From: a virus | Virus record (IMG/VR): IMGVR_UViG_3300046514_000338 | Coordinates: 1-64,000 of that record | Strand: one strand, 5' to 3' | Length of the DNA: 64,000 bases | Shown here: piece after piece, positions 16,684-33,517 of the stretch | Numbering within the stretch: the stretch's first letter is position 1 | Layout: each line of letters opens with the position of its first letter | Program-made: the position numbers and the translations under genes | Notes under the pieces: model-generated | What the model saw: the letters and a program-made list of their open reading frames with translations, nothing else | Told to the model about the DNA's origin: nothing | The model's database searches: none

Positions 16684-17346
16684 TTACGTGGTTTTAGTTT
16701 CTTTGGATAATAGTTCTGGGGTTTCGTAAATATTGCCGATTATTAATTTGTAGATGCTGTATGTTTCGCCGTCGTTAATTGGACTACCGTCTGAAAATTG
16801 AAACTGGCAAGTGTCATCATTCCATTCAACCCACAAAATGTTACCATTCAAAAACCGAATTAAGTCTCCTTCGTAAATTTCTTTATTGCTGTCATCCTTT
16901 AGGCCAGTAAAGGTTCCCCGGTATTCAAATTTTCCGCGTCTGAACGTTTTTGAGATAAGCTGACCCAGCGTAAAGACTGTTGTTATATTTCTATCCTTAT
17001 CATATAGCCTGAACTTTTTTTCATCGAAGATGGGTGATGTGCTAATAAATGCTCCGTTCTGATTCCTTTCACCCAAATGACCAACAGCATGATCCTTTGG
17101 ATTAGTTAGTTTAAGGTTTTCAATGCGGTTATCGTCTCGAATCTCATTAATGTGATGAACAAGTTCTTTTCTCGGGACTAAATATCTGCCCAACTGATTC
17201 TCTACTATCAATCTATGCTCCATTAAATACCCCCTTTTGTTGGCATGGGGATGGTATGATACCTTTCTCAACTGATAGCCATTTTCTTTATAGCCAAGAG
17301 TTTTATCTCCGTCCCATGCCCTGAATTTTATTTCTCGCTGTTCCAT
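16684..17346 (-). CDS. YopX-family protein with an inserted HNH endonuclease domain
   Basis: YopX ends REIKFRAWD and [23 protein letters not shown] enclose EHRLIVE...[16 protein letters not shown]. Confidence 0.85.
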
Positions 17347-17347
17347 A

Positions 17348-17785
17348 TTACTTACTTTTAGTTTCGTGATCAGAAAGGATAATATCTATTTGTGTCTGGC
17401 TGCATACTTCCAATACCTTTATTCTCAATACACCAATATCTATTTTCAACCTCTCATTTCTATCCTTTAGTGATTGTAGTTCGGTTTCTTTTTTAATTAA
17501 TAGCTGCGTTAAATCAGAGCATCGCTTAGACCATTTCTCTGACCTTGTTTTCCACGTAAGGGTTTCCGCATCAACGAAATCTTTAATCGCCCTAATTTTA
17601 CTGCCATGAAGGGACATACCCTTTAATCCAACTATTAAGTCACTAATCTTGCCAGTAAGGTCGTCCTCAATATTTAAAGTATCTGTCATGGTTGTTAATT
17701 TGTTTGTTGATAATATTTTTTCCCTACATAAAAACCAATTTACCATAGCCTGCGCATATTTTATATATTCATTTTCCTCTGTCAT
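17348..17785 (-). CDS. hypothetical coiled-coil protein
   Basis: ORF in operon; start uncertain (17785 or about 17689). Confidence 0.55.
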
Positions 17786-17810
17786 GGTTTGTTGTTTACC
17801 TGTTGGTGAA

Positions 17811-18116
17811 TTAAATTGTTTTGCTATCGCCTGTACTACTATCATCGCCTGTTGTGTCACTCACTTGTACGTTCTGTTCGCTATTCAGCATTTTGAAACA
17901 AGGGCAAGTAGCGCAATATTCAGGCGAAATATTTGTCCTTAATCCATTTGGCTCATTGTCGGTAAGTGACCAGCAACCCATTACACCCATTAATGCATCC
18001 GGATAACTGCACCATGTCGGCTGAGAATAATTATCAATGACAAACTGAGTAGTAACTTTCCTTTCAACAAGGCCATCAATTTCCGATTGCGATATTTCGT
18101 GCCAAAATGGTTTCAT
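17811..18116 (-). CDS. Cys-rich hypothetical protein
   Basis: WCSY, GCWSL and CATCPC. Confidence 0.65.
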   Translation of the reverse strand: MKPFWHEISQSEIDGLVERKVTTQFVIDNYSQPTWCSYPDALMGVMGCWSLTDNEPNGLRTNISPEYCATCPCFKMLNSEQNVQVSDTTGDDSSTGDSKTI

Positions 18117-18127
18117 AACCTATTGTT

Positions 18128-18538
18128 TTAACTGTTAGGTGTTGCTTTGTCAATTTTATTGTAATGTCTTATAACATAAGATAGCTTGTATCTGAAACTT
18201 ACGTGGCGTAGTTGCTGAATTATATCTCTTAATTTCAGTATATCTTCCTTCGGAACTATTTTAACAAGCAAATCAATTAACAAATCATCGTGAACGCAGT
18301 GTATTGTTTCCTGAAAACTATCGCCCGTCACGCCTTCATCCGCATCATCATACATTTTAAGTCGGGTTGCTATTTGGGCGCAATGCTTATGAGTTTTCCA
18401 ATCATAAAGTGTCCCTTCATGCTTGTGGGTAGATTTCATGTAAACCTCTCCCACCTTTATTTTTTCACAACAAAAATCACAACGATGCTCTTTTGCTGCC
18501 GTTGTCTCCGTAGCATATAATAAAGTTTCAATACTCAT
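18128..18538 (-). CDS. zinc-finger protein
   Basis: AKEHRCDFCCEKI..GE.Y...HKHC. Confidence 0.65.
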   Translation of the reverse strand: MSIETLLYATETTAAKEHRCDFCCEKIKVGEVYMKSTHKHEGTLYDWKTHKHCAQIATRLKMYDDADEGVTGDSFQETIHCVHDDLLIDLLVKIVPKEDILKLRDIIQQLRHVSFRYKLSYVIRHYNKIDKATPNS

Positions 18539-18559
18539 GTTGCTTTGTTTTATTTACTA

Positions 18560-18900
18560 GGTTTGGCGGTGTGGGGAGCCGTTCGGCGTTCCTTCCTATT
18601 TCATCCGTTGCAACGGAATCATTCAACTCCCCCACTACCATAAAATAATTTATTCCGCCACTACACCCAATCACAGTATGTATTTATAAGAGCCTTGAAA
18701 AACCCGTCTTTCCGGGTTGTCACGATTTGTATGTCTGCTCGACAATGGTTTTGCCGCTATTACACCGATGACATTTGGCGGGGACGTCCTACAGCCCGGT
18801 AATCCCATTCGTTTTATACGCTGATAATGATTAACGGCATTATCATTCGAGGTGCACCCCTACGTAGCTGACCGAAAAATATTTTTAAGAACTCATTTCC
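18560..18900 (-). ncRNA. structured non-coding region with boxA/boxB-like elements
   Basis: About 400 bp gene-free gap with several stems, an AACCCG-GAAAGA-CGGGUU hairpin, GCTCTTATAAAT and GTTCTTAAAAAT. Confidence 0.4.
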
Positions 18901-20016: not shown

Positions 20017-20343
20017 ATGAACAAACGAACCGCCATCAACCACGCAGCAGTTTCAATATTTTCTATTTTTATTATTTCGATTTTGTGCATCGCGGGGTAT
20101 AGAGATAGTGACGCACGACCCACGCAGCGACACTCGCCGGTCATTAAAACATATATGTTCGCCGTGGATAGTCCCACTTATGTATTTATGGATAGCGTAT
20201 GGAGGGCTTCAATACGGAATACTGGTTATACAATGTCTGCGCCGGATGCCGACCAACTTCGCGCAACCCAAGCGGGGATAGTTAACTTTTTCCAAACACA
20301 ACGGGTGCAGCAGGATAGCGCGGCCAAAAAAACAAAAAAATAA
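20017..20343 (+). CDS. exported or membrane-anchored protein
   Basis: N-terminal hydrophobic segment; DSV and DSA sequons. Confidence 0.6.
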   Translation: MNKRTAINHAAVSIFSIFIISILCIAGYRDSDARPTQRHSPVIKTYMFAVDSPTYVFMDSVWRASIRNTGYTMSAPDADQLRATQAGIVNFFQTQRVQQDSAAKKTKK

Positions 20344-20345
20344 TT

Positions 20346-20750
20346 ATGAATAAACAGCAAACAACACTCGCCATCATTGGCGCTATTGCAGTCGTCACCG
20401 TCTTTTTGTTCGGATGGCCGCAATATAAAGTGTGGCAGCAAAGAAAGGAAGGACAAGCCATGTTAGCACATGCGCAATACGCGAAAGAGGTAGCCGTAGC
20501 AGAAGCAAAAGCAAAAAAAGAAAGTGCCGCATTGTTATCTGAAGCCGATACTTTAAGAGCACATGGAACCGCAAGGGCTAATGAAATTATCGGTAAGTCA
20601 ATCACCAAAGAATACCTTCAATGGTTTTGGACAGAATCGCTAAAGGAAAATCAAGGCCGTGAGCAAGTGATATATGTTCCATCGGGGCAACTAGGCGTAC
20701 CAATAATGGAGGCGGGAAGATTGGGTGTAGCAGATACGGGATTTCGCTAA
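20346..20750 (+). CDS. membrane protein resembling the SPFH/prohibitin coiled-coil C-terminus
   Basis: TM helix, AEAKA..EA..A.G.A.AN..I, and VIYVP. Confidence 0.6.
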   Translation: MNKQQTTLAIIGAIAVVTVFLFGWPQYKVWQQRKEGQAMLAHAQYAKEVAVAEAKAKKESAALLSEADTLRAHGTARANEIIGKSITKEYLQWFWTESLKENQGREQVIYVPSGQLGVPIMEAGRLGVADTGFR

Positions 20751-20751
20751 A

Positions 20752-20779
20752 TAAAAAAGCCCCGACTTCGAGGCTTTTC
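20752..20779. terminator. bidirectional terminator between convergent genes
   Basis: AAAAAAGCCCCGACTTCGAGGCTTTT. Confidence 0.6.
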
Positions 20780-20804: not shown

Positions 20805-21080
20805 CTAAGCGTTTGCAAGCGTTTGGATAGCTGCGGGTGTCAGGTTAGAGAAGAAAATTGCGCCCGGAATCGCAGCGGTGCGAACCGAACTGTAGATTAA
20901 CGCCGCTCCTGCCACGCCGCAAGCCTGAAGCTGTTGCAGTGTAGCACCCGTATTTGGTTGCACCTGAATAGACGCACCAGCGAACATCATAATGTTACCA
21001 AAGGGGTAAAGCGTTCTGTCAATCAATTGCTGACTTCCGATTTGGTATATCGGAATAGGAATTAACGTTGACGTAGCCAT
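20805..21080 (-). CDS. small nearly uncharged protein, possibly virion-associated
   Basis: Lone leftward gene with its own TATTTTTG box and terminator. Confidence 0.65.
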   Translation of the reverse strand: MATSTLIPIPIYQIGSQQLIDRTLYPFGNIMMFAGASIQVQPNTGATLQQLQACGVAGAALIYSSVRTAAIPGAIFFSNLTPAAIQTLANA

Positions 21081-21163
21081 TTTCTAGTAGTTGTAGTTAA
21101 AAAATGTTGTTGACGTTCAAAAATAATTAAAAAAATCAATATTTTTTGAAAACTTTTCAATAA

Positions 21164-21964
21164 ATGGCTATAACCTGCCTTCATTCATTTAACGCTGGCG
21201 ACCTTATTACCATCCTACCGGGGTTCCAAAACCTATATATGTCGCTTAAAAAAAAGACCACCATCTACCAAAGGCTAGGTCTTCCCGCTTATTATTATGA
21301 TGATGCGCAGCACCCAGTACAACAGGACGGGAAGCAGGTATGTATGAATCAGCAAGTGTTCGATATGATGAAGCCGCTGCTAATGGTGCAACCATATATT
21401 CAATCATTTGAAGTGTGGGAAGGGCAGGAAGTTCATTTCGATATTGATAAAACGCGGCAATCATCCCAAATACCATTACCGGGTGGAGATATTCATGCGT
21501 GGCCTACCCTTATTCATCCGCAACTAGCGTGTGACTTAAGTGTGCCTTGGATTCATGTTGGTGGGAAGCGGGAAGGGTTTGCTGATAAGATTGTTATTAA
21601 CCGCACCACTCGCTACAGGAATCATTATATACAATATTTTTTCCTAAAGGACTATGAAGACAAAATTGTTTTTATTGGCCTCGAACATGAGCATAAGGAT
21701 TTTTGCGAACAATTCAAATTAAAAATTCCATTATTCACCGCGACAAATTTTTTAGAATTAGCTGAAGTAATATCTTCGGCTAGATTTGGGATTTTTAATC
21801 AATCATTAGCGTGGCACTTAGCCGATGCGCAAAAAACAAAACGAATACTAGAGGTATGTACTGTTTATCCCAACTCCTTTGCAACAGGGAAGGATGGGTA
21901 TAATTTCACGCAGCAAGAGTCTTTAGAATATAGATTTCATGAACTTTTAAAACAGACCGAATGA
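21164..21964 (+). CDS. GT-B glycosyltransferase, GT9 (heptosyltransferase)-like
   Basis: HSFNAGDLI...P and ELAEVISSARFGIFNQSLAWHLADA. Confidence 0.65.
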   Translation: MAITCLHSFNAGDLITILPGFQNLYMSLKKKTTIYQRLGLPAYYYDDAQHPVQQDGKQVCMNQQVFDMMKPLLMVQPYIQSFEVWEGQEVHFDIDKTRQSSQIPLPGGDIHAWPTLIHPQLACDLSVPWIHVGGKREGFADKIVINRTTRYRNHYIQYFFLKDYEDKIVFIGLEHEHKDFCEQFKLKIPLFTATNFLELAEVISSARFGIFNQSLAWHLADAQKTKRILEVCTVYPNSFATGKDGYNFTQQESLEYRFHELLKQTE

Positions 21965-23379
21965 CCAATTTGCCAAATGTAACACTCTGCATCATTGACT
22001 GTGTAAACTACGGTCCAGCTATTCAGGCAATCAGAAAAAGCCTGAGTCAAATCACTCCCGCTAAGACTATTTTCCTGACAGATATTTCCGCCGTCAACCC
22101 AAACTTCCCGTTTGAGATAATAAAAATTCCAAAAATTGACTCAAAGGAAGCCTACTCAACATTCGTCATAAAGGAACTACACAAGTATATAAGTACAGAT
22201 TATGTGCTTATTATTCAGCATGACGCATGGGTTCTTGACGGAAGCGTGTGGGATGATGGATTTTTGGAGTACGATTATATAGGTGCGCCGTGGCTGTATA
22301 TCGACGGTAGAAACGTTGGCAACGGGGGATTTAGTCTTCGTAGTAAAAGGCTGCATGATATATTAGCTAGTGATGAATTTATATTGCCGGTTCACCCGGA
22401 GGATGATGCGATTTGCAGAACATATCGTCACTATCTTGAACGCAAGTATAACATAAAGTTTGCGCCGGAAGATATTGCTGATAAGTTTTCGTTTGAACTC
22501 AGAGAGCCGTCACAAAAAACATTTGGGTTCCACGGAAAATTTCATAAACAATTTAAGCCAACGGTTGTGGTTAAAAGAACTGGTGCGTTAGGGGATTTGG
22601 TCGCCGTAGAACCGCTGCTTAAATATTATTTTGATAAAGGATATAATGTTGTTATAGATGCGCCGCTGCATCTTGCGATGATTTATTCGCAACACTATTT
22701 CCCCGTCAGGCATATTTCGCAACTAACAGATGGTCGCGTTCCTTATACGCTTATTGATTTGGATGGTGCATATGAAACAAATCCAAAACAACTTCATTTG
22801 AAAAGTTATTATGATAGAGCAGGCATTACCGATGGTGAAATAAGAAGCCCGAAATTGAACATGGTCGCAGATGAATTTAATCGACTCTTTGTAGGTAAGT
22901 ATGCAGTTATTCATAACGATGTGCGCGACCAACCATCGCGTAATATTTACGGAGTGGATTGGGGAAAAGTAGTTGAACGTTTGCACGACGAAGGATTCAT
23001 CGTTATCCAAGCGGGAATGTCGCCGCACTTACCAATCGAAGGAGCGATTGATATGAGAACGGTAACTGTTAACATGCTAGTCTACCTCATGGCAGGCGCT
23101 TCTCTTTTTGTTGGCATAGATAGTGGCATTTCAAATATTGCGGCAGCGTTCCATGTACCATCGGTAATATGCGTTGGGTCTGTCAACCCAGAATATATTT
23201 ATCCCGATATGTCCAACATCGAAATCGTGAACAATCACCCATGCTGCGAAAAAAAGTATTGCTGGAACGAAGTGGTGTCAACAACGGGTCAGGATTGCTA
23301 CATAGATAAAAACAATCCGCCGTGTACGAATTTTGAAACAGACAAAGTAATTAATGCCATAAATCAATTCTTTGAGTGA
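21961..23379 (+). CDS. DUF5672 (GT-A-like) plus GT9-like glycosyltransferase fusion
   Basis: QHDAWV..YDYIGAPW..VGNGGFSLRS, then RTGALGDL and FVGIDSGISNIAAA. Confidence 0.8.
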   Translation: MTNLPNVTLCIIDCVNYGPAIQAIRKSLSQITPAKTIFLTDISAVNPNFPFEIIKIPKIDSKEAYSTFVIKELHKYISTDYVLIIQHDAWVLDGSVWDDGFLEYDYIGAPWLYIDGRNVGNGGFSLRSKRLHDILASDEFILPVHPEDDAICRTYRHYLERKYNIKFAPEDIADKFSFELREPSQKTFGFHGKFHKQFKPTVVVKRTGALGDLVAVEPLLKYYFDKGYNVVIDAPLHLAMIYSQHYFPVRHISQLTDGRVPYTLIDLDGAYETNPKQLHLKSYYDRAGITDGEIRSPKLNMVADEFNRLFVGKYAVIHNDVRDQPSRNIYGVDWGKVVERLHDEGFIVIQAGMSPHLPIEGAIDMRTVTVNMLVYLMAGASLFVGIDSGISNIAAAFHVPSVICVGSVNPEYIYPDMSNIEIVNNHPCCEKKYCWNEVVSTTGQDCYIDKNNPPCTNFETDKVINAINQFFE

Positions 23380-24125
23380 TATACGATTGTTTCATATATA
23401 ATGGAGAGCGGGAACTGTTAGACATTCGGATAAACGAAATGAGCCTATGCAAAGAACCTGTTGCCTGTGTTTGCGTAGAGGCTAATGTAACGCACACCGA
23501 CGAGAGTAAAAGTATTGAGCGGATTACTACCGAAGGAGTCTATCATTTTATGGTTGGCCTTCCGTCAGGAGCAACCCCTAGGGAGATGGAGGCCATTCAG
23601 AGAAATAAAATCATAGATTCGCTGCTCCAATTAAAACCAAAGGATGACGACATTATTATCATATCAGATATTGACGAAGTGCCAAGGGCTAGGCAGATTA
23701 ATCTTTTTAAGCCACAAGTAGAGTTTGCCGCGCTTATCATGGATAAATATGGGTATTACCTGAACTGGTTAGAATCAGCACAATCATGGGATAGGGCGAG
23801 AATTATGTCATGGCACTATCTTAAAGACAAAGAACCGGAAGCTGTAAGGAACAGCGGGTATGATTTTTCTCTTCATCATGCGGGGTGGCATTGGAGTTAC
23901 CTTTGGAACAGGGCGCACCAAAAATTGAAAACATTTTCACACCAAGAATTAAACAATGAGGCCAACCACGAAGCTGTTACGGCAAAAGAAAATTTTTGGA
24001 GCGGAGAAAAACTGAAACGAATAGAACTTGACCTTTCCCACCCGGAGTGGTTGCTTAAAAACGAAATTACATTTGCGCACCTAATAGACAACCCATCATT
24101 TAAATATATATATGAAAGTATATGA
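23376..24125 (+). CDS. GT17-like (beta-1,4-GlcNAc transferase-like) glycosyltransferase
   Basis: IYDCF.YN.E..LL.IR, ISDIDEVP and AGWHWSY. Confidence 0.8.
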   Translation: MIYDCFIYNGERELLDIRINEMSLCKEPVACVCVEANVTHTDESKSIERITTEGVYHFMVGLPSGATPREMEAIQRNKIIDSLLQLKPKDDDIIIISDIDEVPRARQINLFKPQVEFAALIMDKYGYYLNWLESAQSWDRARIMSWHYLKDKEPEAVRNSGYDFSLHHAGWHWSYLWNRAHQKLKTFSHQELNNEANHEAVTAKENFWSGEKLKRIELDLSHPEWLLKNEITFAHLIDNPSFKYIYESI

Positions 24126-24870
24126 TTGCTTTCCGTTTTTTAACGAACTGGATTTATTGAAAATAAGACTTGAAACGCTAAAGGAATTAGACCCCATTCA
24201 TGTGCTCGTAGAGGCCACTACTACTCATACGGGGCTACCAAAGCCGCTATACTTTGAAGAGAATAAGGAATTGTTCAAAGACTATAATATCCGCCACATC
24301 ATAACCGAACTCCCAAACAACGGCGACTATTGGCTTGCAGAAAATAAACAAAGGGATGCTATCATTGCCGGCCTTTATGATGCAGAAGATGAAGACTTGA
24401 TTATTATAAGCGACTTGGACGAAATTGCAAGACCGGACAGAATACGCCTTTTTGACGCAAGCGTACATATTGTAGCGGGGCTGAAGATGGATAAATATAG
24501 TTACTATATTAACTGCCTTGAAGGAGCGCAGTGTTGGGAAGTCCCGAAGTTGACTACATTCGCGCACCTAAAGACAACTACCCCAAACAAACTTCGTAAC
24601 GGCGGCCACGACACCATTATCCTTGATGCAGGGTGGCACATGAGTTTTTTGGGCGGCGTAGCAAAGATGAGAGAAAAGTTATTTTCTTATGCGCATACAG
24701 AAACGGTTACGGCGGATTTGTTAAACAACTTGGAGCGAAAGTTTGAGCGAGGGGAATCAATGTGGGGAACTGACCTTTGGCGGTTTGTACGAGTAGATGA
24801 AACGTTCCCGAAGGTCGTGCAGGAGAACAAACAATTTTATGAACAAATCGGTTTATTGAAAAAATTATGA
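24112..24870 (+). CDS. GT17-like glycosyltransferase (tandem paralog)
   Basis: VYDCFPFFNELDLLKIRL, SDLDEI and AGWHMSFLGG. Confidence 0.85.
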   Translation: MKVYDCFPFFNELDLLKIRLETLKELDPIHVLVEATTTHTGLPKPLYFEENKELFKDYNIRHIITELPNNGDYWLAENKQRDAIIAGLYDAEDEDLIIISDLDEIARPDRIRLFDASVHIVAGLKMDKYSYYINCLEGAQCWEVPKLTTFAHLKTTTPNKLRNGGHDTIILDAGWHMSFLGGVAKMREKLFSYAHTETVTADLLNNLERKFERGESMWGTDLWRFVRVDETFPKVVQENKQFYEQIGLLKKL

Positions 24871-25553
24871 TGTACGTTGATGGTAAAGATATGGGCTATA
24901 AAGCAAAAGCAGGCTGGTGGAATGACCCCTCAGATAAAGATGCGTTTCGTATCGCTGAACTAAACAATGATTATCCTTACGAATATTTTTCAACAGACCA
25001 CGTTTCAGAAACGGTGGTTACGGCCTATTGCGATAGCGTAGTCCGGGCGTATGAATTATTGTCGGGAGCGCCGCTAAAAACAATTGTAGAGTTTGGGGCA
25101 GCGGGAGGGTGGTTCACATCTGAATTTTTTAAAAGAGGTTACCACATTTGGGGATTCGATGGTGCTGAAAGTGGTCTTGCGAAATGTTTTGACAGAAAAA
25201 TATTTTTTGCAGATGCGCAGGATTTTCGCAAACCAATGGCAGAGCCGTATAGAAAGTTTGACATTGCTCTTTGCACCGAAGTAGCAGGGCATATTGAGCC
25301 TCCGTTTAGTGCTATGCTAGTTTCAAATTTAGTAAAACACTCAGATGTGATATGGTGGAGTAGCGAAGAAGTTGGTGTAACAAAACCACACTTGCACCAT
25401 CCCAACGAACAGCCTTATCAGTATTGGATAAATATTTTTGAGTTTTATGGCTATAAGGCAAAAAAGATAAGCGACGAAATATTTTACGCCTGCGAAGGGC
25501 GCGGGAGATATATTTTTTATAACAGCAACACATATGATAATGCGAACACTTGA
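24867..25553 (+). CDS. class I SAM-dependent methyltransferase
   Basis: VEFGAAGGWF, FDIALCTEVAGHI and HPNEQP..YW. Confidence 0.8.
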   Translation: MMYVDGKDMGYKAKAGWWNDPSDKDAFRIAELNNDYPYEYFSTDHVSETVVTAYCDSVVRAYELLSGAPLKTIVEFGAAGGWFTSEFFKRGYHIWGFDGAESGLAKCFDRKIFFADAQDFRKPMAEPYRKFDIALCTEVAGHIEPPFSAMLVSNLVKHSDVIWWSSEEVGVTKPHLHHPNEQPYQYWINIFEFYGYKAKKISDEIFYACEGRGRYIFYNSNTYDNANT

Positions 25554-26175
25554 CGAAATAGCTATTGAATGTGGTACCGATAAATCAAGTCGTGGTCATT
25601 CCTACTGCCAGTATTACGACATATTCTTTGACCAACTAAGGTACAAGTCAATTAATCTGCTAGAAATAGGCATTGATAAGGGCGATTCATTGCGAATGTG
25701 GCATAAATATTTTCCCCACTCTGAAATTCACGGCATCGACCTGCGTGGCGATTATGAGTACCTGCATGAACTAGGAATAAAAACACACATAGTTGACCAC
25801 AGCAATCGCGGCGAATTAATAGTGTTTGGTGAGCAATACGACCAGCATTTTGATATAATTATCGAAGACGGTAGCCACATGAGCGAAGATTCTGTACTTA
25901 CTTTCGAGACTCTTTTTCGCTATCTTAAACCGGGCGGTAATTATGTCATTGAAGATATGCTATGCGATTATGATAGTCGGTGGAACAGCGGGAGAAGTTC
26001 CATAGAGCGGGTAAAGAGAATGGTCAGCGAGGTAAACATGAGCGACGGTATAAGTCACGATAATCTATGCTCTAACAAAAAAGAAGCAGTAAAAAAATAT
26101 GGCGGAACTTATTTTGATTTGAAAATAGAGTCTATATTCGTGAGTTGCGGCCTTTGTATCATTAAAAAAATGTAA
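25534..26175 (+). CDS. SAM-dependent sugar O-methyltransferase-like (MycE-type)
   Basis: GTDK..HSY, LLEIGI..G.SLRMW, FDIIIEDGSH and LKPGG.YVIED. Confidence 0.8.
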   Translation: MIMRTLDEIAIECGTDKSSRGHSYCQYYDIFFDQLRYKSINLLEIGIDKGDSLRMWHKYFPHSEIHGIDLRGDYEYLHELGIKTHIVDHSNRGELIVFGEQYDQHFDIIIEDGSHMSEDSVLTFETLFRYLKPGGNYVIEDMLCDYDSRWNSGRSSIERVKRMVSEVNMSDGISHDNLCSNKKEAVKKYGGTYFDLKIESIFVSCGLCIIKKM

Positions 26176-26178
26176 ACC

Positions 26179-26709
26179 ATGAGTCTCTTTTGCCCGGTAG
26201 AAACATTACAGAACTCCAAAGAACTTGCTGAGATGGTTGACCTTTATCAAAAAGTAAAACCAAAAACGGTACTAGAGATAGGCAGTCTGTACGGCGGAAC
26301 GCTTTATCATTGGATGGATAAGGCAGATTGGCTGGTAAAGATTGTGTCAATAGATTTAGAAGTGAGAAATAAAGAGATGTGGTTTTCGTGGCTAAAGGAT
26401 GGGCAAAGCCTTGTTGCATTTCAGGGAAATTCATCAAACCCCGAAATGGTGGAATCGGTTTTAAAAACATTCCCGGATGGGGTTGATTGGTTATTTATCG
26501 ACGGCGGCCATGCGTATCACGAAGCAAGAGATGATTATTTTAATTATTTCCCGTTGGTGCGCCCCGGTGGTTATTGCCTTTTCCATGACATTATTGGCGA
26601 ACTAGGCGTAGTCGCATTGTGGAAGGAGATAAAAGCGGCAGGTGTCAATGTAACTGAAATTTCTCACGAACCACCCTATCTTGGGATAGGCATAATTCAA
26701 AAGGCATGA
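26179..26709 (+). CDS. Methyltransf_24-like O-methyltransferase
   Basis: VLEIGSLYGGT, LFIDGGHAY..A..D and VRPGG...HD. Confidence 0.8.
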   Translation: MSLFCPVETLQNSKELAEMVDLYQKVKPKTVLEIGSLYGGTLYHWMDKADWLVKIVSIDLEVRNKEMWFSWLKDGQSLVAFQGNSSNPEMVESVLKTFPDGVDWLFIDGGHAYHEARDDYFNYFPLVRPGGYCLFHDIIGELGVVALWKEIKAAGVNVTEISHEPPYLGIGIIQKA

Positions 26710-27437
26710 GCGATAAGATTACCTTGGTGACGGTGAACTGGAACCAACAACCATGTGTTGAGTTGTTGCTAAAATCGTTTGTTGAGCATCATCATTCGCT
26801 TCGCCCGATACGGCTTTGCTTGGTTGACAACGGCTCTACGGATGGGTCAAAAGAATGGCTTAAGGAAAACGGAATACCGTTTATTGACCTCAAAGAAAAT
26901 ATAGGCCATGAGAATGCGCTGAACCATGTGTATAACGACATAAAAACTAGGTACGTGATACTAAACGATACCGATGTTGAATATCATAACAACGTATATG
27001 ATTACATTTGGGAACTTGGCGACAAACGAATCAGCGTTGGAGAACTTATTGACCAAAATCAAATGAATGGCATTCACATTAAAGATAGAATTTCGCCTTG
27101 GTTTTGGATTTTTGACATATACGCCATGCGCAATCGCGGCGTAAAATATTTCCGTGACCCGGCAGTTGGTGATTGGACATACGATGTGGGGTCTTGGCAT
27201 TGGGATAAAATGAAGGAAAATGGTTTTGAAAATCTTCCAATCAATCGCAAACATTGGAACCAAGATTCTGAAATTGTGAGTATGCCGTATGAGCGGTTTG
27301 ACCACATAGGAAAAGTATCTTGGGATTTGGATAACCACGGTGACCGATATTCAGAAGTAATGCGCAGGAGATATTACATAAAAGACAGGCTGAAAGATTA
27401 TGAGCACATTGACCTAAAAGGAAAATTTATACCATGA
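26706..27437 (+). CDS. GT2-family glycosyltransferase
   Basis: VTVNWN, VDNGSTDGS, NIGH..ALN and LNDTD. Confidence 0.8.
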   Translation: MSDKITLVTVNWNQQPCVELLLKSFVEHHHSLRPIRLCLVDNGSTDGSKEWLKENGIPFIDLKENIGHENALNHVYNDIKTRYVILNDTDVEYHNNVYDYIWELGDKRISVGELIDQNQMNGIHIKDRISPWFWIFDIYAMRNRGVKYFRDPAVGDWTYDVGSWHWDKMKENGFENLPINRKHWNQDSEIVSMPYERFDHIGKVSWDLDNHGDRYSEVMRRRYYIKDRLKDYEHIDLKGKFIP

Positions 27438-28174
27438 CACTAGGCGGCATATTAATGATAAGGGAGGGCGTAAAGTACGATTATTGTTTTGAAGAGGCCA
27501 TCGTATGCCTAAAGGAATTATGTGACGAAGTGGTTGTGCTTGCAATAGATGGTGACGACAACACCGTTGAAATTTGTAAGACATACGAAGACCAACACAC
27601 TATGGTCGTCGTCTTAGATTCTTTAGAATGGTACCGGCAAAAAGGGAAAGAGCGACTTTCGTATTTTCAAAACATTGCTAAATCGTTTTTGACCACCGAT
27701 TATTATTTTTTATTGCAGAGCGATGAAATTGTCCATGAATATTCGTTTCCCGATATAAGGAAAGCTATAGAGACCGGGAAAGAGGCATTCCCGGTTCACA
27801 GGATAAATCTTTGGAGAGACTGCAATAGTTATTTAAGTGTAGGGCAGCACAGGCAACCATGCAATACAAGCCCAATAAGACTTGCTAAAATAAAATACGA
27901 TTCTGTTGGCGATGGGGAGAGTATAGGTGCCGAAGGAGAATGGGGCTTGCAATATTATATAAAAATGTATCACTATGGCTTCGTAAGGAAAAGAGAGGTG
28001 ATGAAAGCAAAGGTGACCAATATGCAAGAAACGGTATTTGGTATAGACCACGACCCAAAACTTGACCAAAGCGAAGAATTTGATTGGCGATTGTGGTTTA
28101 GCGAAGAAGACCTAAAGCCTATTAGTGGCACTCACCCGAAATTTATCAAAGATTGGATTATCACACGACCTTAA
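27434..28174 (+). CDS. GT2-like glycosyltransferase
   Basis: CDEVVV...DDNT, LQSDE and YHYGFVR. Confidence 0.75.
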   Translation: MTLGGILMIREGVKYDYCFEEAIVCLKELCDEVVVLAIDGDDNTVEICKTYEDQHTMVVVLDSLEWYRQKGKERLSYFQNIAKSFLTTDYYFLLQSDEIVHEYSFPDIRKAIETGKEAFPVHRINLWRDCNSYLSVGQHRQPCNTSPIRLAKIKYDSVGDGESIGAEGEWGLQYYIKMYHYGFVRKREVMKAKVTNMQETVFGIDHDPKLDQSEEFDWRLWFSEEDLKPISGTHPKFIKDWIITRP

Positions 28175-28183
28175 TTATTAAAT

Positions 28184-29791
28184 ATGCAAAAGAAAATTTT
28201 ATTCGCAAAAGAAGCAAGAGAAAAATTAAAGAAAGGAGTTAACGTTATCGCTGACGCAGTATCGGTGACCCTTGGGGCTAGCGGCAAAAACGTTCTCATT
28301 GGGAACTCTTACACGCAGGATTATAATGTATTTCATTTAAAAACGAGAGTAACGAAAGACGGCGTTACTGTTGCGCGGGAGGTTAATTTGATTGACCCCG
28401 CCGAGCACCGTGGCGTGATGATGCTCCGGGAAGCCTCGGAAAAAACAATGAGCCATGCAGGAGATGGGACTACATCAACAATTGTGCTTGCGAGGGCTAT
28501 TGTTAACGAAGGGCTGGCATTAATTGAACGTGGCGCAAATTCTATGGAACTAAAAAGAGGTATTGATGCCGCCACTGAAGATGTGGTAGAGCAATTAAAG
28601 GCAATGGCTACTCCTATCGGGAATGACATTGAAAAGATACGGCAGATTGCTACCATAGCCGCCAACAACGACACCAACATAGGTAACCTTATTGCAGAAG
28701 CCTATGCAAAAATTGGTAGTGATGGAGTAATCAATATTGAAGAATCGCTTAGCGAAGTAACAGAAATAAAGGTTACTGAAGGAGTGAAGATTGATAGCGG
28801 ATGGATTGTACCACATTTCAACACCAATAATCCGAGACAAGAATGCGAACTAAATGACCCTATTATACTACTATACGAAAAATCAATAAGCAAAATAGCG
28901 CAGCTAAAACGAGTTGTTGAACATGCGGCATCAACTAGAAGACCGCTATTTATATGTTGCAATGATATGGATGGGGAAGCCCTTGCCTTTCTTATTGTAA
29001 ACACCAAGCCGATGAATGGCAAATTGCCGGCATTAAATGGGGCGTGTGTGATAAAAAACCCATCATTCGGCGCAGGCAGGATTGACGAAATGGAAGATTT
29101 GGCGGTATCAGTAGGAGCCACGTTTGTCTCTGACCTAAAAGGAATCGCTATTGAAAAAATGAGTCTTCAAAATCTAGGCGCGGCAAAAAAGATTATCATT
29201 TCCAAAGACCAAACCATCGTTATTGAAGGGGAGAAGGACGGAGATGTTTACGATGACCACATAAATAATCTAAAAATGAATCACGCCCAATCAGAAGGAG
29301 ACGACAAGGATAAACTAGAAAAGAGAATCGCAAAACTCACCGGCGGCATAGCGGTTATTTCAGTAGGCGGCGTAACAGAAGTTGAAATGAAGGAACGCAA
29401 AGACAGAGTTGATGACTCAATAAGGGCAACCAAGTCTGCTATTGCAGAGGGCTACCTTCCGGGAGCGGGAACTTCGCTTATAAGAGTTCATGAGCGGCCA
29501 TATTTTCAGGATTCAGATTTCGATAAAGGACGCATGGCTTTATTCTGCTCATTAAAATCTCCGCTTATACAGATATGTGAGAACGGCGGTGCTGATGCAG
29601 GCGATGTGTTTAGTAAAGTTGTAAATGCGGAAGGGAGTGTTGGATATAACGCCGTAACTGGGAAAGTCGAAGACTTAGTGACTTCTGGCGTTATTGACCC
29701 ACTAAAGGTGGTAAGAAACGCGCTTATTAATGCCGCATCGGTAGCCGGTATGATTATAACATCTGAGTGCTTAATCGTTGATGATTATTAA
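28184..29791 (+). CDS. groEL: chaperonin GroEL (phage-encoded)
   Basis: VTKDGVTVA, AGDGTTS, ERKDRVDD and GVIDPLKV; lacks the GGM tail. Confidence 0.97.
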   Translation: MQKKILFAKEAREKLKKGVNVIADAVSVTLGASGKNVLIGNSYTQDYNVFHLKTRVTKDGVTVAREVNLIDPAEHRGVMMLREASEKTMSHAGDGTTSTIVLARAIVNEGLALIERGANSMELKRGIDAATEDVVEQLKAMATPIGNDIEKIRQIATIAANNDTNIGNLIAEAYAKIGSDGVINIEESLSEVTEIKVTEGVKIDSGWIVPHFNTNNPRQECELNDPIILLYEKSISKIAQLKRVVEHAASTRRPLFICCNDMDGEALAFLIVNTKPMNGKLPALNGACVIKNPSFGAGRIDEMEDLAVSVGATFVSDLKGIAIEKMSLQNLGAAKKIIISKDQTIVIEGEKDGDVYDDHINNLKMNHAQSEGDDKDKLEKRIAKLTGGIAVISVGGVTEVEMKERKDRVDDSIRATKSAIAEGYLPGAGTSLIRVHERPYFQDSDFDKGRMALFCSLKSPLIQICENGGADAGDVFSKVVNAEGSVGYNAVTGKVEDLVTSGVIDPLKVVRNALINAASVAGMIITSECLIVDDY

Positions 29792-29793
29792 TT

Positions 29794-30072
29794 ATGATTG
29801 AAACATTACAGGCAGTAAACACATTCGTTTTGATTGTTCGTGACGAAGAACAGTCGGAGATTGGCGGCCTCATCCTCCCAGACCAAGCCCAAGTAAGACC
29901 CGCTACCGGTAAAATTATTTCCGTTGGCGATAAAGTGACTGACAAAAACATTGAGGTTGGTAAAACAGGTGTATGGAATAAAAATGTAGGGTGGGAAATT
30001 GAGATAGGCGAACAATCACTAACCGTTATCTACGCCGGGGAAAAAGATTCACAACTAATCGCCGTATTCTGA
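29794..30072 (+). CDS. groES: co-chaperonin GroES
   Basis: GGLILPD mobile loop and GKIISVG; adjacent to groEL. Confidence 0.85.
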   Translation: MIETLQAVNTFVLIVRDEEQSEIGGLILPDQAQVRPATGKIISVGDKVTDKNIEVGKTGVWNKNVGWEIEIGEQSLTVIYAGEKDSQLIAVF

Positions 30073-30611
30073 TGCAGTCTGTTTGCGAAAAAATATTGGT
30101 GCAAGTTAATATGGAGCAAAAAGAATTTGCTGATATTGGGGGTATTCCGTGTTTCCTTGCCACAAGCTATAACCCAAATCACAGGGAAAAGAACCCGGTA
30201 TTAGCATTAGTGCTTCAAGGGAACGATGAGATTCCCGGTGGCTCACTCATCGTAACACACCACAATTATTTTATCGAATACTCTCCCTTTGAGGTGGCTG
30301 ATGGAATATTTTCTATCCCATACACAGAAAATATCTTTGCGGTTATAGATAAAGACGGCAACCCAACTCCGGTATGTGGCAATATTATAGCAGAACGAAT
30401 ACAGGAGAATGAGTATATCGGCATGGCAAACCCAAAGCGACTTCACTTTCATGACCGCGCAAAAGTGGTATCTGATGCCTGCGGTTTTAAGACCGGGGAT
30501 GAGATATTGATGCTCCCGTTTAGCGACTATGAAATAGTGTACAATTGGCGTGGTATTGAGCGTAGCGTTATTCGGGTCTATTCAAAAAATATAGTAGCTG
30601 TTGTGAAGTAG
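30072..30611 (+). CDS. putative tandem GroES-like-fold protein
   Basis: Two beta-rich halves, each with a V..D..(F/I)..G(D/S) type segment and ending NI(F/V)AV. Confidence 0.45.
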   Translation: MQSVCEKILVQVNMEQKEFADIGGIPCFLATSYNPNHREKNPVLALVLQGNDEIPGGSLIVTHHNYFIEYSPFEVADGIFSIPYTENIFAVIDKDGNPTPVCGNIIAERIQENEYIGMANPKRLHFHDRAKVVSDACGFKTGDEILMLPFSDYEIVYNWRGIERSVIRVYSKNIVAVVK

Positions 30612-30651: not shown

Positions 30652-33159
30652 ATGGCCGCCCCAACCGCAACTCAGAGCCAGCAGGACAATCCGCCGGCAA
30701 AATTCAACGATGTACTCCTTCAACTGGATTTTGACGACCCGCGACAATTAACCAAAAAAGAAACGGGACAAAAAATTGCAGAGGCAATTTTTACTAATCA
30801 AACTAGCAACACGCATAGCCTTAATTTTTTTGTCGCAAGGGCAGCCCGCTTCCTGACATTAGAGCATTGGTCGAATGGTACGCAGGATATGACAGAGTTC
30901 TTAGACTTCTTCAATGTGTCTGATGGTAACAAAGCATATCTTAAAATAGATATGTCACCTGTGATGGTAGGACCACAATTCGTCGGGACACTTGTGGATT
31001 CTATGTGCAAAACAGAGGAATACCCTTGCGTGAAAGCCGTGGATGAAGATAGCTTGGCCGAAAAACAAAAACGAAAACATGATGCGCTTTTTAGAATGCA
31101 CGAAGTTGAAACAATAGATGCGGTGCAACAACAGTCGGGGATGCAACTAGAGCCTACCAACGCATATGTCCCAGATGACGAACTAGCAGCAGAAGTCTAT
31201 TTTTCTCTACAAGACCAACTACCAAAAGAAATAAACTTTGAAGAATATCTTACCCGCGCACTATTATATAATCAATACGACAGAGTGTTGAAGCCAAAGT
31301 TTATTCGCGACCTCATCGTAAATAACATCGAATGCAATAAGATAGAGCGTGATATTTACGGCAAAAGAACTATAAGGAGGGTTGTTCCCAAAAACCTTAT
31401 GTACAATTACTTCATAGGTGATACTGGCAGACTCGAACTTCGTTATATAGGTGATGTATATAACATGAAAATTTGCGACATAAGAATTAAGTACGGAAGG
31501 TCAGACAACAGGCCGGATGGACTTACCGAACTTGACCTATATAACCTTGCAAAATTTTCAACAGGGAATAACACCGGCATTGGATTTGCCTACCCGTGGC
31601 AACCTCAATATATGGTCTATGATAATCGTCGCCCTTGGGATGATAATAGTGTTTATATTTTCGACTTCGAGTACCGGGCAAATGAAACAGAGTATTATAC
31701 AAATCGCGTTGATAGATTTGGCAAAGAGAACATTACTCCAAAAAAAGGTAAGCCAGAGCCTACAGGAGATAAGACGAAAGTGTTATCAAAAGAAAAGGTG
31801 CGCTGGTATAACGGCATCTACGCTCCATATGCCAAGATAATTATATACTGGGGACTGCCTGACCTAGTAATTTTCCCATATACTGATGTATATATGGGAT
31901 TATCAAACTACACCATTAATATCCCGTTCAATAATGGCGAGTATGTGCCTGCTTTATTTGAAAGAGCAATGGAGCCATTAAAGGAGTATGCGCTCACGAA
32001 ACTTAAACGCAAGCAACTTATATCAAAACTTCGTCCATCCGGTATAAGGATTGACGTTGAAAGCGCCAGAAATATTGACCTTGGGAACGGTAATACTATA
32101 TCATGGGAAGAAATAGTTAGGATATATGACCAGACCGGGAACGAACTATGGAGCAGCCTAGGAATAAACCCAAATGAACGGCAAATGCCCGCTCTTACCG
32201 CAACGGCGGTTGATGACACTATTATGAAGGTTGTGCAACTCACAAATGTTTTGCAAGCAAACATAATGGATATACGCTCATTATTGGGTGTTCCACTTTA
32301 CCGTGATGGTAGTGATTTACCAGAGAGAACATCGGGGAAACAAGCAGAACTTCAAAACGCCTCTTCATTCAATGTGACTAGCTTCATTGAAAATGCCCAT
32401 AATCAGTTTATGAGCGAAACATTGTATAAATTATGTTTGCTCGAATGGCAGGAAATAGTAACCACTAAGCCCGATTCTGCGCAAGACCTAATCAATACAA
32501 AGTTTGACGTATCTGTGAAAATGAAAATGACAGAATATGAAAAACAGTTAATGCAGCAGCGCATTCAAACGGCGATGCAGACAATAGACCAAGATACCGG
32601 GAAGCCGCTCATTTCGTTTAAAGACGCTTTCATGGTTGAACAAATCGACAACTTCAAACTCGCTTACAATTTTTTAGCCAACACAATAGCAGACAATGAA
32701 CGAAAGGCAGAGATGGGCAGACAACAAAGGGAGCAAGCTAATGCAGATGCTCAACAGCAGACCGCTGCGCAATCGGCTGATGCTGAAAAGCAAATGCAGG
32801 CGGATAAAAATGAGGCAGAAAAAGATTTACTAGATTTTAAATCTACTAAGGATAAAGAATTAAAGGCTCTTGAAATTGCAGGGATGGTCGCCGCAAAAGG
32901 TCTTCCGTTACCCGATTTTATGCAGGCGATGATAAGTCAGTTAGTCCCGAACATAACTATCCCGCTAGCCCAAGAGAATAAGCAGATGGCGCAGGCGATT
33001 CAGGCGCAGGCAGCGGCAGAGCAGCAACAGGCTATACAGGAACAAGCAATGCAGCAACAAGGACAGCAGCCGGGGCAGCCGCAACAACAGGATATGCAGC
33101 CGCAACAAGGTAACCCGCAAATGCAAAATCAGCAACAGCCGCAAATGGCAATGGCGTAA
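30652..33159 (+). CDS. portal protein (crAss-like/podovirus type)
   Basis: 835 aa, largely helical, Q-rich tail; position next to the terminase. Confidence 0.8.
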   Translation: MAAPTATQSQQDNPPAKFNDVLLQLDFDDPRQLTKKETGQKIAEAIFTNQTSNTHSLNFFVARAARFLTLEHWSNGTQDMTEFLDFFNVSDGNKAYLKIDMSPVMVGPQFVGTLVDSMCKTEEYPCVKAVDEDSLAEKQKRKHDALFRMHEVETIDAVQQQSGMQLEPTNAYVPDDELAAEVYFSLQDQLPKEINFEEYLTRALLYNQYDRVLKPKFIRDLIVNNIECNKIERDIYGKRTIRRVVPKNLMYNYFIGDTGRLELRYIGDVYNMKICDIRIKYGRSDNRPDGLTELDLYNLAKFSTGNNTGIGFAYPWQPQYMVYDNRRPWDDNSVYIFDFEYRANETEYYTNRVDRFGKENITPKKGKPEPTGDKTKVLSKEKVRWYNGIYAPYAKIIIYWGLPDLVIFPYTDVYMGLSNYTINIPFNNGEYVPALFERAMEPLKEYALTKLKRKQLISKLRPSGIRIDVESARNIDLGNGNTISWEEIVRIYDQTGNELWSSLGINPNERQMPALTATAVDDTIMKVVQLTNVLQANIMDIRSLLGVPLYRDGSDLPERTSGKQAELQNASSFNVTSFIENAHNQFMSETLYKLCLLEWQEIVTTKPDSAQDLINTKFDVSVKMKMTEYEKQLMQQRIQTAMQTIDQDTGKPLISFKDAFMVEQIDNFKLAYNFLANTIADNERKAEMGRQQREQANADAQQQTAAQSADAEKQMQADKNEAEKDLLDFKSTKDKELKALEIAGMVAAKGLPLPDFMQAMISQLVPNITIPLAQENKQMAQAIQAQAAAEQQQAIQEQAMQQQGQQPGQPQQQDMQPQQGNPQMQNQQQPQMAMA

Positions 33160-33164
33160 ATAAA

Positions 33165-33308
33165 ATGTATAGGGGAATGTCCAATGAATACTTTGAAGGT
33201 TGTGGTGAGATATTTTTTGTCATCGAATATTTGCGGTGTAAAAATGTTTGTGTAATATTTATTGACCATGAAGCATACGGGGAAGTGTTCCCAATCATCC
33301 TAAACTAA
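33165..33308 (+). CDS. small hypothetical protein (47 aa)
   Basis: Manual ORF filling the gap after the portal gene. Confidence 0.35.
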   Translation: MYRGMSNEYFEGCGEIFFVIEYLRCKNVCVIFIDHEAYGEVFPIILN

Positions 33309-33316
33309 AAATAATC

Positions 33317-33517
33317 ATGAAAGTAAGACTTAAAAAAACCGCTCCCGGTCAGAAAACTATAACCTTCAACAAAGGCGGCTTGCATGAATCAACCGGAACG
33401 CCACAGGGTCAGCCTATTCCTGCCGCGAAAAAAGAAGAAGCACTCGAAGGAGAACTTGGTAAGAAAGCCAAAATGCAAGCATTGTTCGCCCGTAATGTCC
33501 TTACCGGAAAGAAATAA
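33317..33517 (+). CDS. small basic phage protein
   Basis: KGGLHESTGTPQGQPIPAAK motif; coupled to the terminase start. Confidence 0.65.
   Translation: MKVRLKKTAPGQKTITFNKGGLHESTGTPQGQPIPAAKKEEALEGELGKKAKMQALFARNVLTGKK

Follow-up and report, generated by a model that had tools for sequence, protein, structure and literature searches.

Positions 21164-28174 of the phage sequence studied here carry nine plus-strand open reading frames (ORFs; g1-g9) that form a recurring, well-defined phage glycan-assembly module. The sequence, in the following called the window, covers the initial 64 kb (64,000 nucleotides) of the 74,936-bp linear IMG/VR record IMGVR_UViG_3300046514_000338, whose completeness is 64% according to CheckV. 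Six of the nine genes encode glycosyltransferases (GTs) and three encode methyltransferases (MTs), and comparative evidence supports reading them as one putative assembly line for a glycan with O-methylated sugars. For its acceptor we weighed four readings: the phage's own particle proteins, which we tentatively put first while granting them less than an even chance; a molecule of the host envelope, which is possible but somewhat doubtful; another soluble target, which is unlikely; and the phage DNA, which is very improbable.

The first-pass annotation of the window had described a nine-gene cluster whose genes nearly all overlap at start and stop and which runs straight into groEL, groES and portal genes. 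All nine ORFs are located exactly there, and 7/8 internal junctions are overlaps. These measure, in order, 4, 4, 14, 4 and 20 nt, followed by a 3-nt gap and two further overlaps of 4 and 4 nt. Downstream, 9 nt separate g9 from groEL and 2 nt separate groEL from groES, which overlaps a gene of 179 amino acids (aa) by 1 nt; the portal gene follows after 40 nt. The portal, the large terminase (TerL) and structural proteins are located 3' of the cluster.

First, we consider the core genes g1, g2 and g9. The 266-aa product of g1 (21164..21964, plus strand) has no Pfam match at E<=10 and none in PHROG or NCBIfam; its assignment is based on an AlphaFold (AF2) model. The model (predicted local distance difference test, pLDDT, 94.8) shows a GT9-type GT-B fold. 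Against solved GT9 enzymes, the VIA Z values are 17.1 for WaaF (1psw), 16.8 for both WaaC (2h1h) and a Veillonella GT9 (3tov), and 15.2 for TibC (4rap), with alignments that cover 226-236 residues, while the best non-GT9 chain reaches Z 10.5. The protein is about 60 residues shorter than WaaC/WaaF. Residues G12-D13 of g1 are invariant in 54 homologues and, equated by their position in the fold rather than by superposing residues, they and G211-D212 of g2 correspond to the GT9 catalytic Gly-Asp motif that follows the first strand. In WaaC, the catalytic Asp is Asp13. The catalytic Asp of TibC is Asp110 (PMC4358343). Given the model, g1 is a probable heptosyltransferase.

The g2 product (21961..23379, plus strand; 472 aa) is a fusion of a DUF5672 domain (residues 59-191) with a GT9-like domain (~200-472), as delimited by Pfam and an orthologue alignment. 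Pfam reports DUF5672 with 70.3 bits and Glyco_transf_9 (PF01075) with 27.3 bits for residues 370-431 (cut-off 22); the NCBIfam GT9 and TibC models match weakly. G211-D212 is invariant in 14 g2 orthologues. A C-terminal cluster of four cysteines lies some 20 residues beyond the Gly motif of the C-lobe, in a position comparable to that of the TibC iron finger, and was considered as a possible marker of bacterial autotransporter heptosyltransferases (BAHT). The orthologues retain C434, C446 and C455 as well as another Cys about 6 residues upstream. The TibC cysteines (C339, C342, C358, C370) are about as far from the Gly motif, but their spacing differs; many GT9 enzymes have C-terminal cysteines. 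A control search for DUF5672 in 14 model genomes found it in none of them.

The third core gene, g9 (27434..28174, plus strand; 246 aa), is always the last before the packaging genes and belongs to a Pfam-less family, i.e., there is no Pfam match at E<=0.01 (PF00535 scores 14.9 bits, under its cut-off of 23.3) and none in PHROG or NCBIfam. Its AF2 model (pLDDT 97.5) has a GT-A fold. The Foldseek matches, namely SunS/ThuS, WrtF, TarP/TarS and SpsA, are generic for GT-A enzymes (TM ~0.5), and the best solved one is the peptide S-glycosyltransferase SunS/ThuS. D42, the acidic motif D97-E98 and H180 are invariant or nearly so in the family. The alignments used here comprise 117 homologues for g1 and 527 (library representatives) for g9. 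PDB sequence searches with g1, g9 and g4 gave weak matches to unrelated proteins, none of them meaningful.

The genes between g2 and g9 make up an accessory cassette. Both g3 (23376..24125, plus strand; 249 aa) and g4 (24112..24870, plus strand; 252 aa) encode GT17-like transferases, with PF04724 scores of 62.7 and 92.7 bits, respectively (cut-off 26 bits). They are paralogues with 33% identity, g3 being of GT-A type, and both keep the acidic motif D98-x-D100-E101 that is invariant in 12 GT17 sequences. Homologues of g4 occur in 26 viral contigs from unrelated phages. A generic class I S-adenosylmethionine-dependent MT is encoded by g5 (24867..25553, plus strand; 228 aa; Methyltransf_23, 34.3 bits), for which no PDB sequence match was found. 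Better characterised is g6 (25534..26175, plus strand; 213 aa), a Methyltransf_24 protein of the MycE/TylE sugar O-MT type that matches MycE (PDB 3ssm, E 3.4e-19), demethylmacrocin O-MT (8ia9, E 2e-16) and phrog_21658 (E 1.4e-29). PHROGs offered no useful family for 7/9 cluster genes. The g7 product (26179..26709, plus strand; 176 aa) is Methyltransf_24/CmcI-rhamnosyl-O-MT-like, with 48.9 bits for PF13578 and 41.1 bits for RMNT_CmcI (PF04989; cut-off 23.2). Finally, g8 (26706..27437, plus strand; 243 aa) encodes a GT2 transferase with GT-A fold (PF00535, 42.8 bits; cut-off 23.3). Orthologues of g6 and g8 are present in the related loci L028, L029, L030, L039 and L041 introduced below, while none were found for g5 (tblastn) and g7 in any of the 14 relatives.

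Pfam matches together with the folds of g1 and g9 thus give six GT genes and three MT genes. The ORF-by-ORF check by profiles and structure that the earlier annotation had called for revealed the GT9 fold of g1 and the GT-A fold of g9, and the remaining genes were assigned by Pfam. Its three different MTs are g5 (Methyltransf_23), g6 (Methyltransf_24) and g7 (Methyltransf_24/RMNT_CmcI). Its count of six GT genes with seven GT domains stands for the genes, on the basis of Pfam and the g1 and g9 models, but not for DUF5672 as a GT domain: an hhalign comparison of the g2 alignment with the g9 GT-A profile reached a probability of only ~1% (E 0.06), which is not significant even though the alignment is collinear. 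The hhalign comparison of g2 with the g1 profile was not significant either.

Next, we compared the module with 14 relatives, of which 13 loci were found by a search of viral contigs with the g1 alignment and one (L041) was taken from a genome collection. The latter (JADJOC010000005.1, 78,326 bp) is a whole phage genome of the clade binned in a Chitinophagaceae metagenome-assembled genome (MAG), a weak hint that names this family as candidate host. The survey of related phages proposed earlier confirms that module and position recur in all 14: the common order is g1, (small genes), g2, a variable cassette and g9, then the packaging genes. g1 is present throughout and g2 is always the DUF5672+GT9 fusion; the L028 contig ends at a GroES-like gene such that its packaging genes are not visible. 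The cassette contains 0-3 GT17 genes, g6-like and other MTs, a g8-like GT2 and two unannotated families. Between the window and ten distant members, identities are 49.5% for g1, 48.6% for g2 and 44.6% for g9, compared to 25.0% for the portal and 25.2% for TerL. Because of this difference, g1, g2 and g9 are, by sequence identity, the best-conserved genes seen in the clade.

One further observation concerns the cassette of the closest relative, where a homing-endonuclease gene with HNH/NUMOD1/NUMOD4 domains (L028 12595-13419) sits between g2 and the first GT17 gene; a related family also precedes TerL in L033 and L034. A recent horizontal acquisition from a host was considered as origin of the cluster and rejected given its uniform GC content (0.41-0.42) and the clade-wide synteny.

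The module's parts are also joined in natural fusions. L040 has a GT17-Methyltransf_24 fusion, and elsewhere g9-family proteins are joined to GT17 domains, in either order, as well as to domains of Methyltransf_24/TylF type. The DUF5672+GT9 combination forms an Atlas cluster of 597 members, 96% of them viral, and DUF5672 is also fused to GT2 and Methyltransf_24, again mostly in viruses. Bacterial DUF5672 domains are fused to TPR arrays, SEC-C motifs, GT2, GT4, GT9 and GT41. Since such fusions connect GT9, GT17, GT2, g9, DUF5672 and MT parts, we read the nine genes as one pathway. The previously suggested single line that builds an O-methylated glycan is borne out by these fusions, by the similarity of g6 to MycE/TylE and by the g7 score above the RMNT_CmcI cut-off. 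The view that the pairing of GT17-like with GT9-like enzymes is unusual finds no support: the module recurs in the 14 relatives, the DUF5672+GT9 cluster is large and mostly viral, and viral contigs unrelated to the window also have GT17-like together with g1-like genes. In those other contigs, GT17-like genes are often neighbours of DUF5672 and g1-like genes, within large islands of sugar-nucleotide genes.

Respective sugar-nucleotide genes are missing here. Neither the cluster (Pfam) nor 69 further ORFs of the 74.9-kb record contain sugar-nucleotide, flippase, polymerase or base-modification genes, so that the earlier statement to this effect for the cluster also holds for these ORFs. Likewise, no phosphoglycosyltransferase, flippase/ABC exporter, polymerase or ligase was found in the nine genes or the 69 further ORFs, and no hydrophobic or transmembrane-like segments in the nine proteins. 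Since the phage lacks sugar-nucleotide genes, the donors must be host-made, as had been proposed; ADP-heptose adenylyltransferase is found above cut-off in 75/101 genomes of the candidate host family. One sub-clade points to the sugar. In L032-L034 (one of them a 100%-complete genome), three genes are inserted precisely at the border of g1 and g2, namely those of a PfkB kinase, a cupin and a cytidylyltransferase-like protein (L033 8349-9845, also in L032 and L034). The cupin is mannose-6-phosphate-isomerase-like. The best NCBIfam models for kinase and cytidylyltransferase are rfaE_dom_I (112 bits) and rfaE_dom_II (88 bits), i.e., the halves of HldE, both under their equivalog cut-offs. An HldE-like pair also accompanies g1-like genes in unrelated viral contigs, and no HldE-like genes were found in the window phage. 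Because the pair sits between g1 and g2 in that sub-clade, heptose from the host pool is probably the sugar used and is our best inference from the gene content.

The gene content also bears on an action of the module on DNA, where the GTs would glycosylate and the MTs decorate a modified base before packaging, as protection against host nucleases. There are precedents: phage GT-A and GT-B relatives of lipopolysaccharide (LPS) and teichoic-acid enzymes add hexose, N-acetylhexosamine and heptose chains to 5-hydroxymethylcytosine (5hmC), a tested cluster, in which a cytidylyltransferase and a GT-B enzyme accompany a bifunctional enzyme of HAD/APH-like type, yields mono- and di-heptosyl 5hmC, and such clusters may lie near structural genes (bioRxiv 10.1101/2023.12.21.572611). 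A site just before the packaging genes would suit post-replicative modification. The known routes, however, require a hydroxylated base, supplied by a ThyA homologue or by a C5-MT with a TET-like dioxygenase (bioRxiv 10.1101/2023.12.21.572611; PMC13326640). This record (G000, 74.9 kb) contains none of the respective families (PF00303, PF00145 and PF12851 for ThyA, C5-MT and TET/JBP), which at 64% completeness is no proof when taken alone, and neither do the complete relatives G002 and G005. The known routes of DNA glycosylation are therefore unlikely. TGT, Que and other base-modification families were not found among the 69 further ORFs, all nine enzymes are acidic, and the MTs are of small-molecule or sugar type and not DNA MTs. 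Taken together, we give a DNA acceptor hardly any weight. As a separate observation, L041 has a partial match to a C5 DNA MT (G004:C5:8775-9104, 42 bits), which the other clade members lack.

Transcription of the module was assessed from its flanks and junctions. A bidirectional terminator-like hairpin at 20755..20778 folds with -16.0 kcal/mol and a U-tail on the minus strand and with -10.7 kcal/mol on the plus strand (RNAfold). As judged from the sequence, it ends both a rightward unit (20017-20750) and a lone leftward small gene, such that g1 starts a new unit. The A+T-rich spacer of 83 bp 5' of g1 (21081..21163, plus strand) is the presumed promoter region, although the Bacteroidota-type promoter TTTG...TAnnTTTG has zero exact matches in it. 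We found no convincing terminator between g9 and groEL. Within the unit, 20 terminator-like matches compare with 15.6 +/- 3.8 in shuffled sequence. Given that such matches are no commoner than in shuffled sequence and that the genes are tightly spaced, co-transcription of the glycan genes with the morphogenesis genes is plausible.

The lone small gene (20805-21080, minus strand) lies directly upstream of g1, in divergent orientation, and has no family match. It marks the border between early/middle genes and the glycan-morphogenesis unit. It was found in 13/14 related loci (e.g., L028 9635-9910, L029 9665-9940, L030 6514-6753 and L032 8292-8540); L040 has an unrelated small reverse ORF, and L041 was left out. 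The encoded protein of 79-92 aa is almost uncharged, with Y12, G28, F33 and T81 invariant and a C-terminal LANA ending in many copies, while its conserved Cys is absent in two relatives.

This small protein is among the observations compatible with another soluble target, where a host protein or a small molecule would be glycosylated, or a free methylated oligosaccharide made, for anti-defence or takeover and with no connection to the particle. The nine enzymes are soluble and acidic, the best solved match of g9 is a peptide S-glycosyltransferase, the frequent fusion of bacterial DUF5672 to long TPR arrays and SEC-C motifs suggests protein partners, and the small protein is conserved next to g1 in the window and 13/14 loci. 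Each point has its weakness, in that no specific candidate has support, the structural matches of g9 are generic for GT-A folds, and two relatives lack the Cys that is otherwise conserved in the small protein. Furthermore, six to nine genes would be a large outlay for the modification of one effector. We consider such a target unlikely.

Our tentative preference is that the acceptor is one or more particle proteins of the phage itself, which would receive the glycan in the cytoplasm ahead of assembly or while it proceeds, although we would not bet on it at even terms. According to this proposal, the core (g1, g9 and both parts of g2, namely DUF5672 and the GT9-like C-terminal half) would lay a heptose-containing base from host nucleotide sugars, which the exchangeable cassette, with its pair of GT17-like enzymes, its GT2 and its two or three sugar O-MTs, would extend and methylate. 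The soluble, acidic enzymes would act without lipid-carrier machinery. The glycan genes would be transcribed first in a unit that goes on to include the genes of chaperonin, portal, terminase and capsid, and particle proteins would become glycosylated in parallel to the capsid and tail-tube glycosylation of mycobacteriophages and the capsid glycosylation of chloroviruses. What favours this, short of making it the expected outcome, is that the module has a fixed place as the first part of the morphogenesis unit, that other routes are lacking and that the enzymes are soluble. With regard to charge, the nine enzymes have isoelectric points (pI) of 4.95-6.26 and the phage g1 family has a median pI of 5.99, compared to 7.2-9.2 for chromosomal g1-like proteins of Chitinophagaceae, whose adjoining canonical GT9 is also basic.

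The alternative that competes most directly is a remodelling of the host envelope. Here, the module would build a methylated, heptose-containing alternative core on a lipid-linked host acceptor, on the cytoplasmic side of the inner membrane. The acceptor would be the lipid A-Kdo (3-deoxy-D-manno-octulosonate) core or another lipid-linked oligosaccharide, and the host's MsbA/Lpt system or an ABC exporter would carry the product out. Altered receptors could, e.g., block superinfection or save progeny from loss on debris. GT9 is the family of the LPS inner-core heptosyltransferases, with WaaF and WaaC as best matches of g1, and core-type assembly requires just soluble or peripheral GTs and no phage flippase or polymerase, in agreement with the genes present. 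A conserved core with variable outer enzymes resembles inner and outer core, and the high conservation of g1, g2 and g9 suits a conserved lipid acceptor of the host. In addition, g1-like genes (28-34% identity) occur in 11/201 Chitinophagaceae genomes; six chromosomal loci (L053-L058) mix them with GT2, GT4, FkbM MT, DUF5672 and MsbA-like ABC transporter genes. DUF5672-bearing sugar islands of cyanomyoviruses are usually interpreted in terms of the envelope too, if without proof (e.g., PMC12801897).

Other observations fit an envelope target less well. The module heads the morphogenesis unit in 14/14 relatives, while genes for exclusion and takeover are as a rule early ones found at varying positions, and pre-existing surface LPS would dilute whatever is newly made during a lytic cycle. 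Acidity also sets the phage enzymes apart from the chromosomal homologues and neighbouring canonical GT9, which are basic, as membrane-peripheral enzymes should be. A Kdo transferase gene was sought beside the chromosomal g1-like genes and is not adjacent to them. All in all, we regard an envelope acceptor as possible, with our doubts outweighing our confidence. The phage module may have its cellular ancestry in the chromosomal Chitinophagaceae loci, one of which (G039) additionally holds a g9-like gene and a canonical GT9.

Several points weigh against a particle protein as acceptor. The charge argument is weak because the whole phage proteome is acidic (median pI 5.99). The phage ORFs contain no poly-Ser/Thr tract or collagen-like repeat, the longest S/T run being 6 residues, and g1 is slightly nearer to WaaF/WaaC (Z 17.1/16.8) than to the protein heptosyltransferase TibC (15.2). 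As cellular g1 homologues lie in glycan loci with MsbA-like ABC exporters, the ancestral acceptor of the g1 family was probably lipid-linked. Moreover, a core twice as conserved as portal and terminase fits a conserved host molecule as acceptor at least as well as it does a virion protein that evolves fast. No acceptor protein is singled out, and the glycan on the particle is a proposal.

Clusters of phage GTs are common in metagenomes, and their target is almost never assigned. Since the present module is compact, free of donor-synthesis genes, at one genomic position clade-wide and more conserved than portal and terminase, it is a clean system for this question. If the acceptor is a particle protein, virion glycosylation would reach beyond mycobacteriophages to phages that infect Gram-negative bacteria of soil and wastewater, with a bearing on particle stability, adsorption and recognition by immune systems or predators. 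It is conceivable, though we hold this more specific picture quite loosely, that the most conserved gene set of this family-level clade, whose hosts are Gram-negative and probably Bacteroidota, is a heptosyltransferase-based line by which the phages coat the proteins of their particles with a glycan of methylated heptose, its outer sugars being swapped between lineages via the cassette. To our knowledge, no virion glycosylation system has been described outside actinobacteriophages before, so that this one would be the first, and it would provide a first function for DUF5672 and two Pfam-less transferase families. If the acceptor is host LPS, this would be a case of a probably lytic phage that rewrites the core oligosaccharide. 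Either acceptor would give an annotation to the DUF5672, g1 and g9 families, i.e., to hundreds of mostly viral proteins.

The phage itself comes from metagenomes alone, and its DNA is present in many rhizosphere and soil metagenomes. Its TerL is about 25% identical to those of the Cellulophaga phages phi13:2, phi19:3 and phi46:3 (Pachyviridae), with similar identity to the podoviruses Maribacter phage Panino and Flavobacterium 'elemo' phages. This level of identity and the gene context lend no support to the 'crAss-like' morphogenesis context assumed in the first-pass annotation. By TerL sequence, the window phage is a distant relative of Pachyviridae, which are its nearest cultured kin, and not crAss-like. 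Searches among GenBank phages by blastn with the whole cluster and by tblastn with g1 and g9 gave no match, and a portal-based scan of viral contigs, a pattern method limited to close relatives, found no relative. The contigs G001, G002 and G005 (those of L029, L034 and L031) have inverted terminal repeats according to their IMG/VR class, which could be either real genome ends or an assembly effect; two of the three are rated 100% complete (58.7 and 62.9 kb). Other ORFs of the window's right arm and of L046 have Pfam matches, without gene-level location, to polysaccharide lyase, K319L-like PKD, PKD, Big_9, YopX, HNH endonuclease and YAcAr (SLOG) domains. The polysaccharide lyase suggests that the phage may degrade a capsule or exopolysaccharide of its host.

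Downstream of g9, GroEL sits before the GroES-like gene in the window (28184-30072 with GroES), in two of the three nearest relatives (L029 15917-17785 and L039 17343-19177) and in L041 (~17068-18597). It is missing in ten more distant clade members, and GroES was matched in the window, L029 and L039. The following 179-aa gene (30072-30611) is kept, with 179-289 aa, in 13/13 IMG/VR relatives (L041 was left out), including those without GroEL/GroES. Its position matches that of gp096 of phi13:2, a 200-aa 'co-chaperonin GroES' that precedes TerS-like, TerL and portal genes. For both reasons, the sequence comparison places the 179-aa gene in the packaging block and not with the chaperonin insert. 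The order portal, 66-aa gene, TerL (30652-35607) of the window differs from the order TerS-like, TerL, portal of the distant relatives (L030-L038).

Finally, we compared the module with known systems. Loci for polysaccharides that depend on Wzx/Wzy or ABC transporters differ by their initiating transferase, flippase or exporter, polymerase and ligase, none of which is found here. Sugar islands of T4-like cyanophages such as Synechococcus phage S-H68 (MK016663.1) share a DUF5672 gene, with 36% identity to the N-terminal domain of g2, which lies there among GT11, epimerase and dehydratase genes. In contrast to the module, these islands encode full sugar-nucleotide pathways, are not attached to packaging genes and lack the g1 and g9 families. 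Clusters for DNA hypermodification are similar in that they use GT-A and GT-B enzymes from envelope pathways, sometimes together with heptose-activating enzymes and sometimes close to structural genes (bioRxiv 10.1101/2023.12.21.572611; PMC13326640). They are, however, always accompanied by a ThyA homologue or by C5-MT plus 5mYOX, which are found neither here nor in the two complete relatives.

Among GT9 enzymes, WaaC and WaaF (2h1h, 1psw) share the fold with g1, as modelled, and the C-terminal domain of g2 (Z 16.5-17.1), as well as the Gly-Asp motif and probably the ADP-heptose donor. The differences are that g1 is shorter and below the Pfam threshold, that the phage enzymes are acidic, lie in a morphogenesis operon and have no known lipid A-Kdo acceptor, and that their NCBIfam equivalog scores are far under cut-off. 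TibC/Aah (BAHT; TIGR04414; PMC4358343) also have a GT9-like fold (Z 15.2). g2 reaches only 24.9 bits for TIGR04414 (cut-off 200) and g1 has no match; g1 aligns to TibC 97-391 only, i.e., it starts at the Rossmann strand without the N-terminal beta-barrel and beta-hairpin thumb. Furthermore, g2 has DUF5672 in front, and the phage has no autotransporter-like or serine-repeat acceptor. The cytoplasmic heptosylation of proteins by TibC/Aah before export or assembly is nevertheless parallel to the glycosylation of particle proteins favoured here.

Two viral systems come nearest to the proposed function. In PBCV-1, a giant virus of eukaryotes, the glycan is N-linked, the capsid protein that bears it is known and no GT9-type heptosyltransferase takes part, such that the system serves as an analogy only. 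Its A064R protein combines two GT domains with an MT domain. What PBCV-1 shares is a virus-encoded, cytoplasmic line of GT-A enzymes with a sugar O-MT, partly as GT-MT fusions, that works without host endoplasmic reticulum or lipid carriers. The glycans of giant viruses are reviewed in PMC9614988. The mycobacteriophage systems have Actinobacteria as hosts, compared to probable Bacteroidota in our case, and their glycan is shown while the present one is proposed; as far as the accounts used here describe them, GT9, DUF5672 and GT17 enzymes are not reported there. According to the same accounts, GTs of Che8 (gp110), Corndog (gp38) and Myrna glycosylate capsid and tail-tube subunits (Freeman et al. 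2023 via PMC12363180, PMC12619734), and they resemble the module in being soluble, phage-encoded GTs that act in the absence of lipid-carrier machinery.

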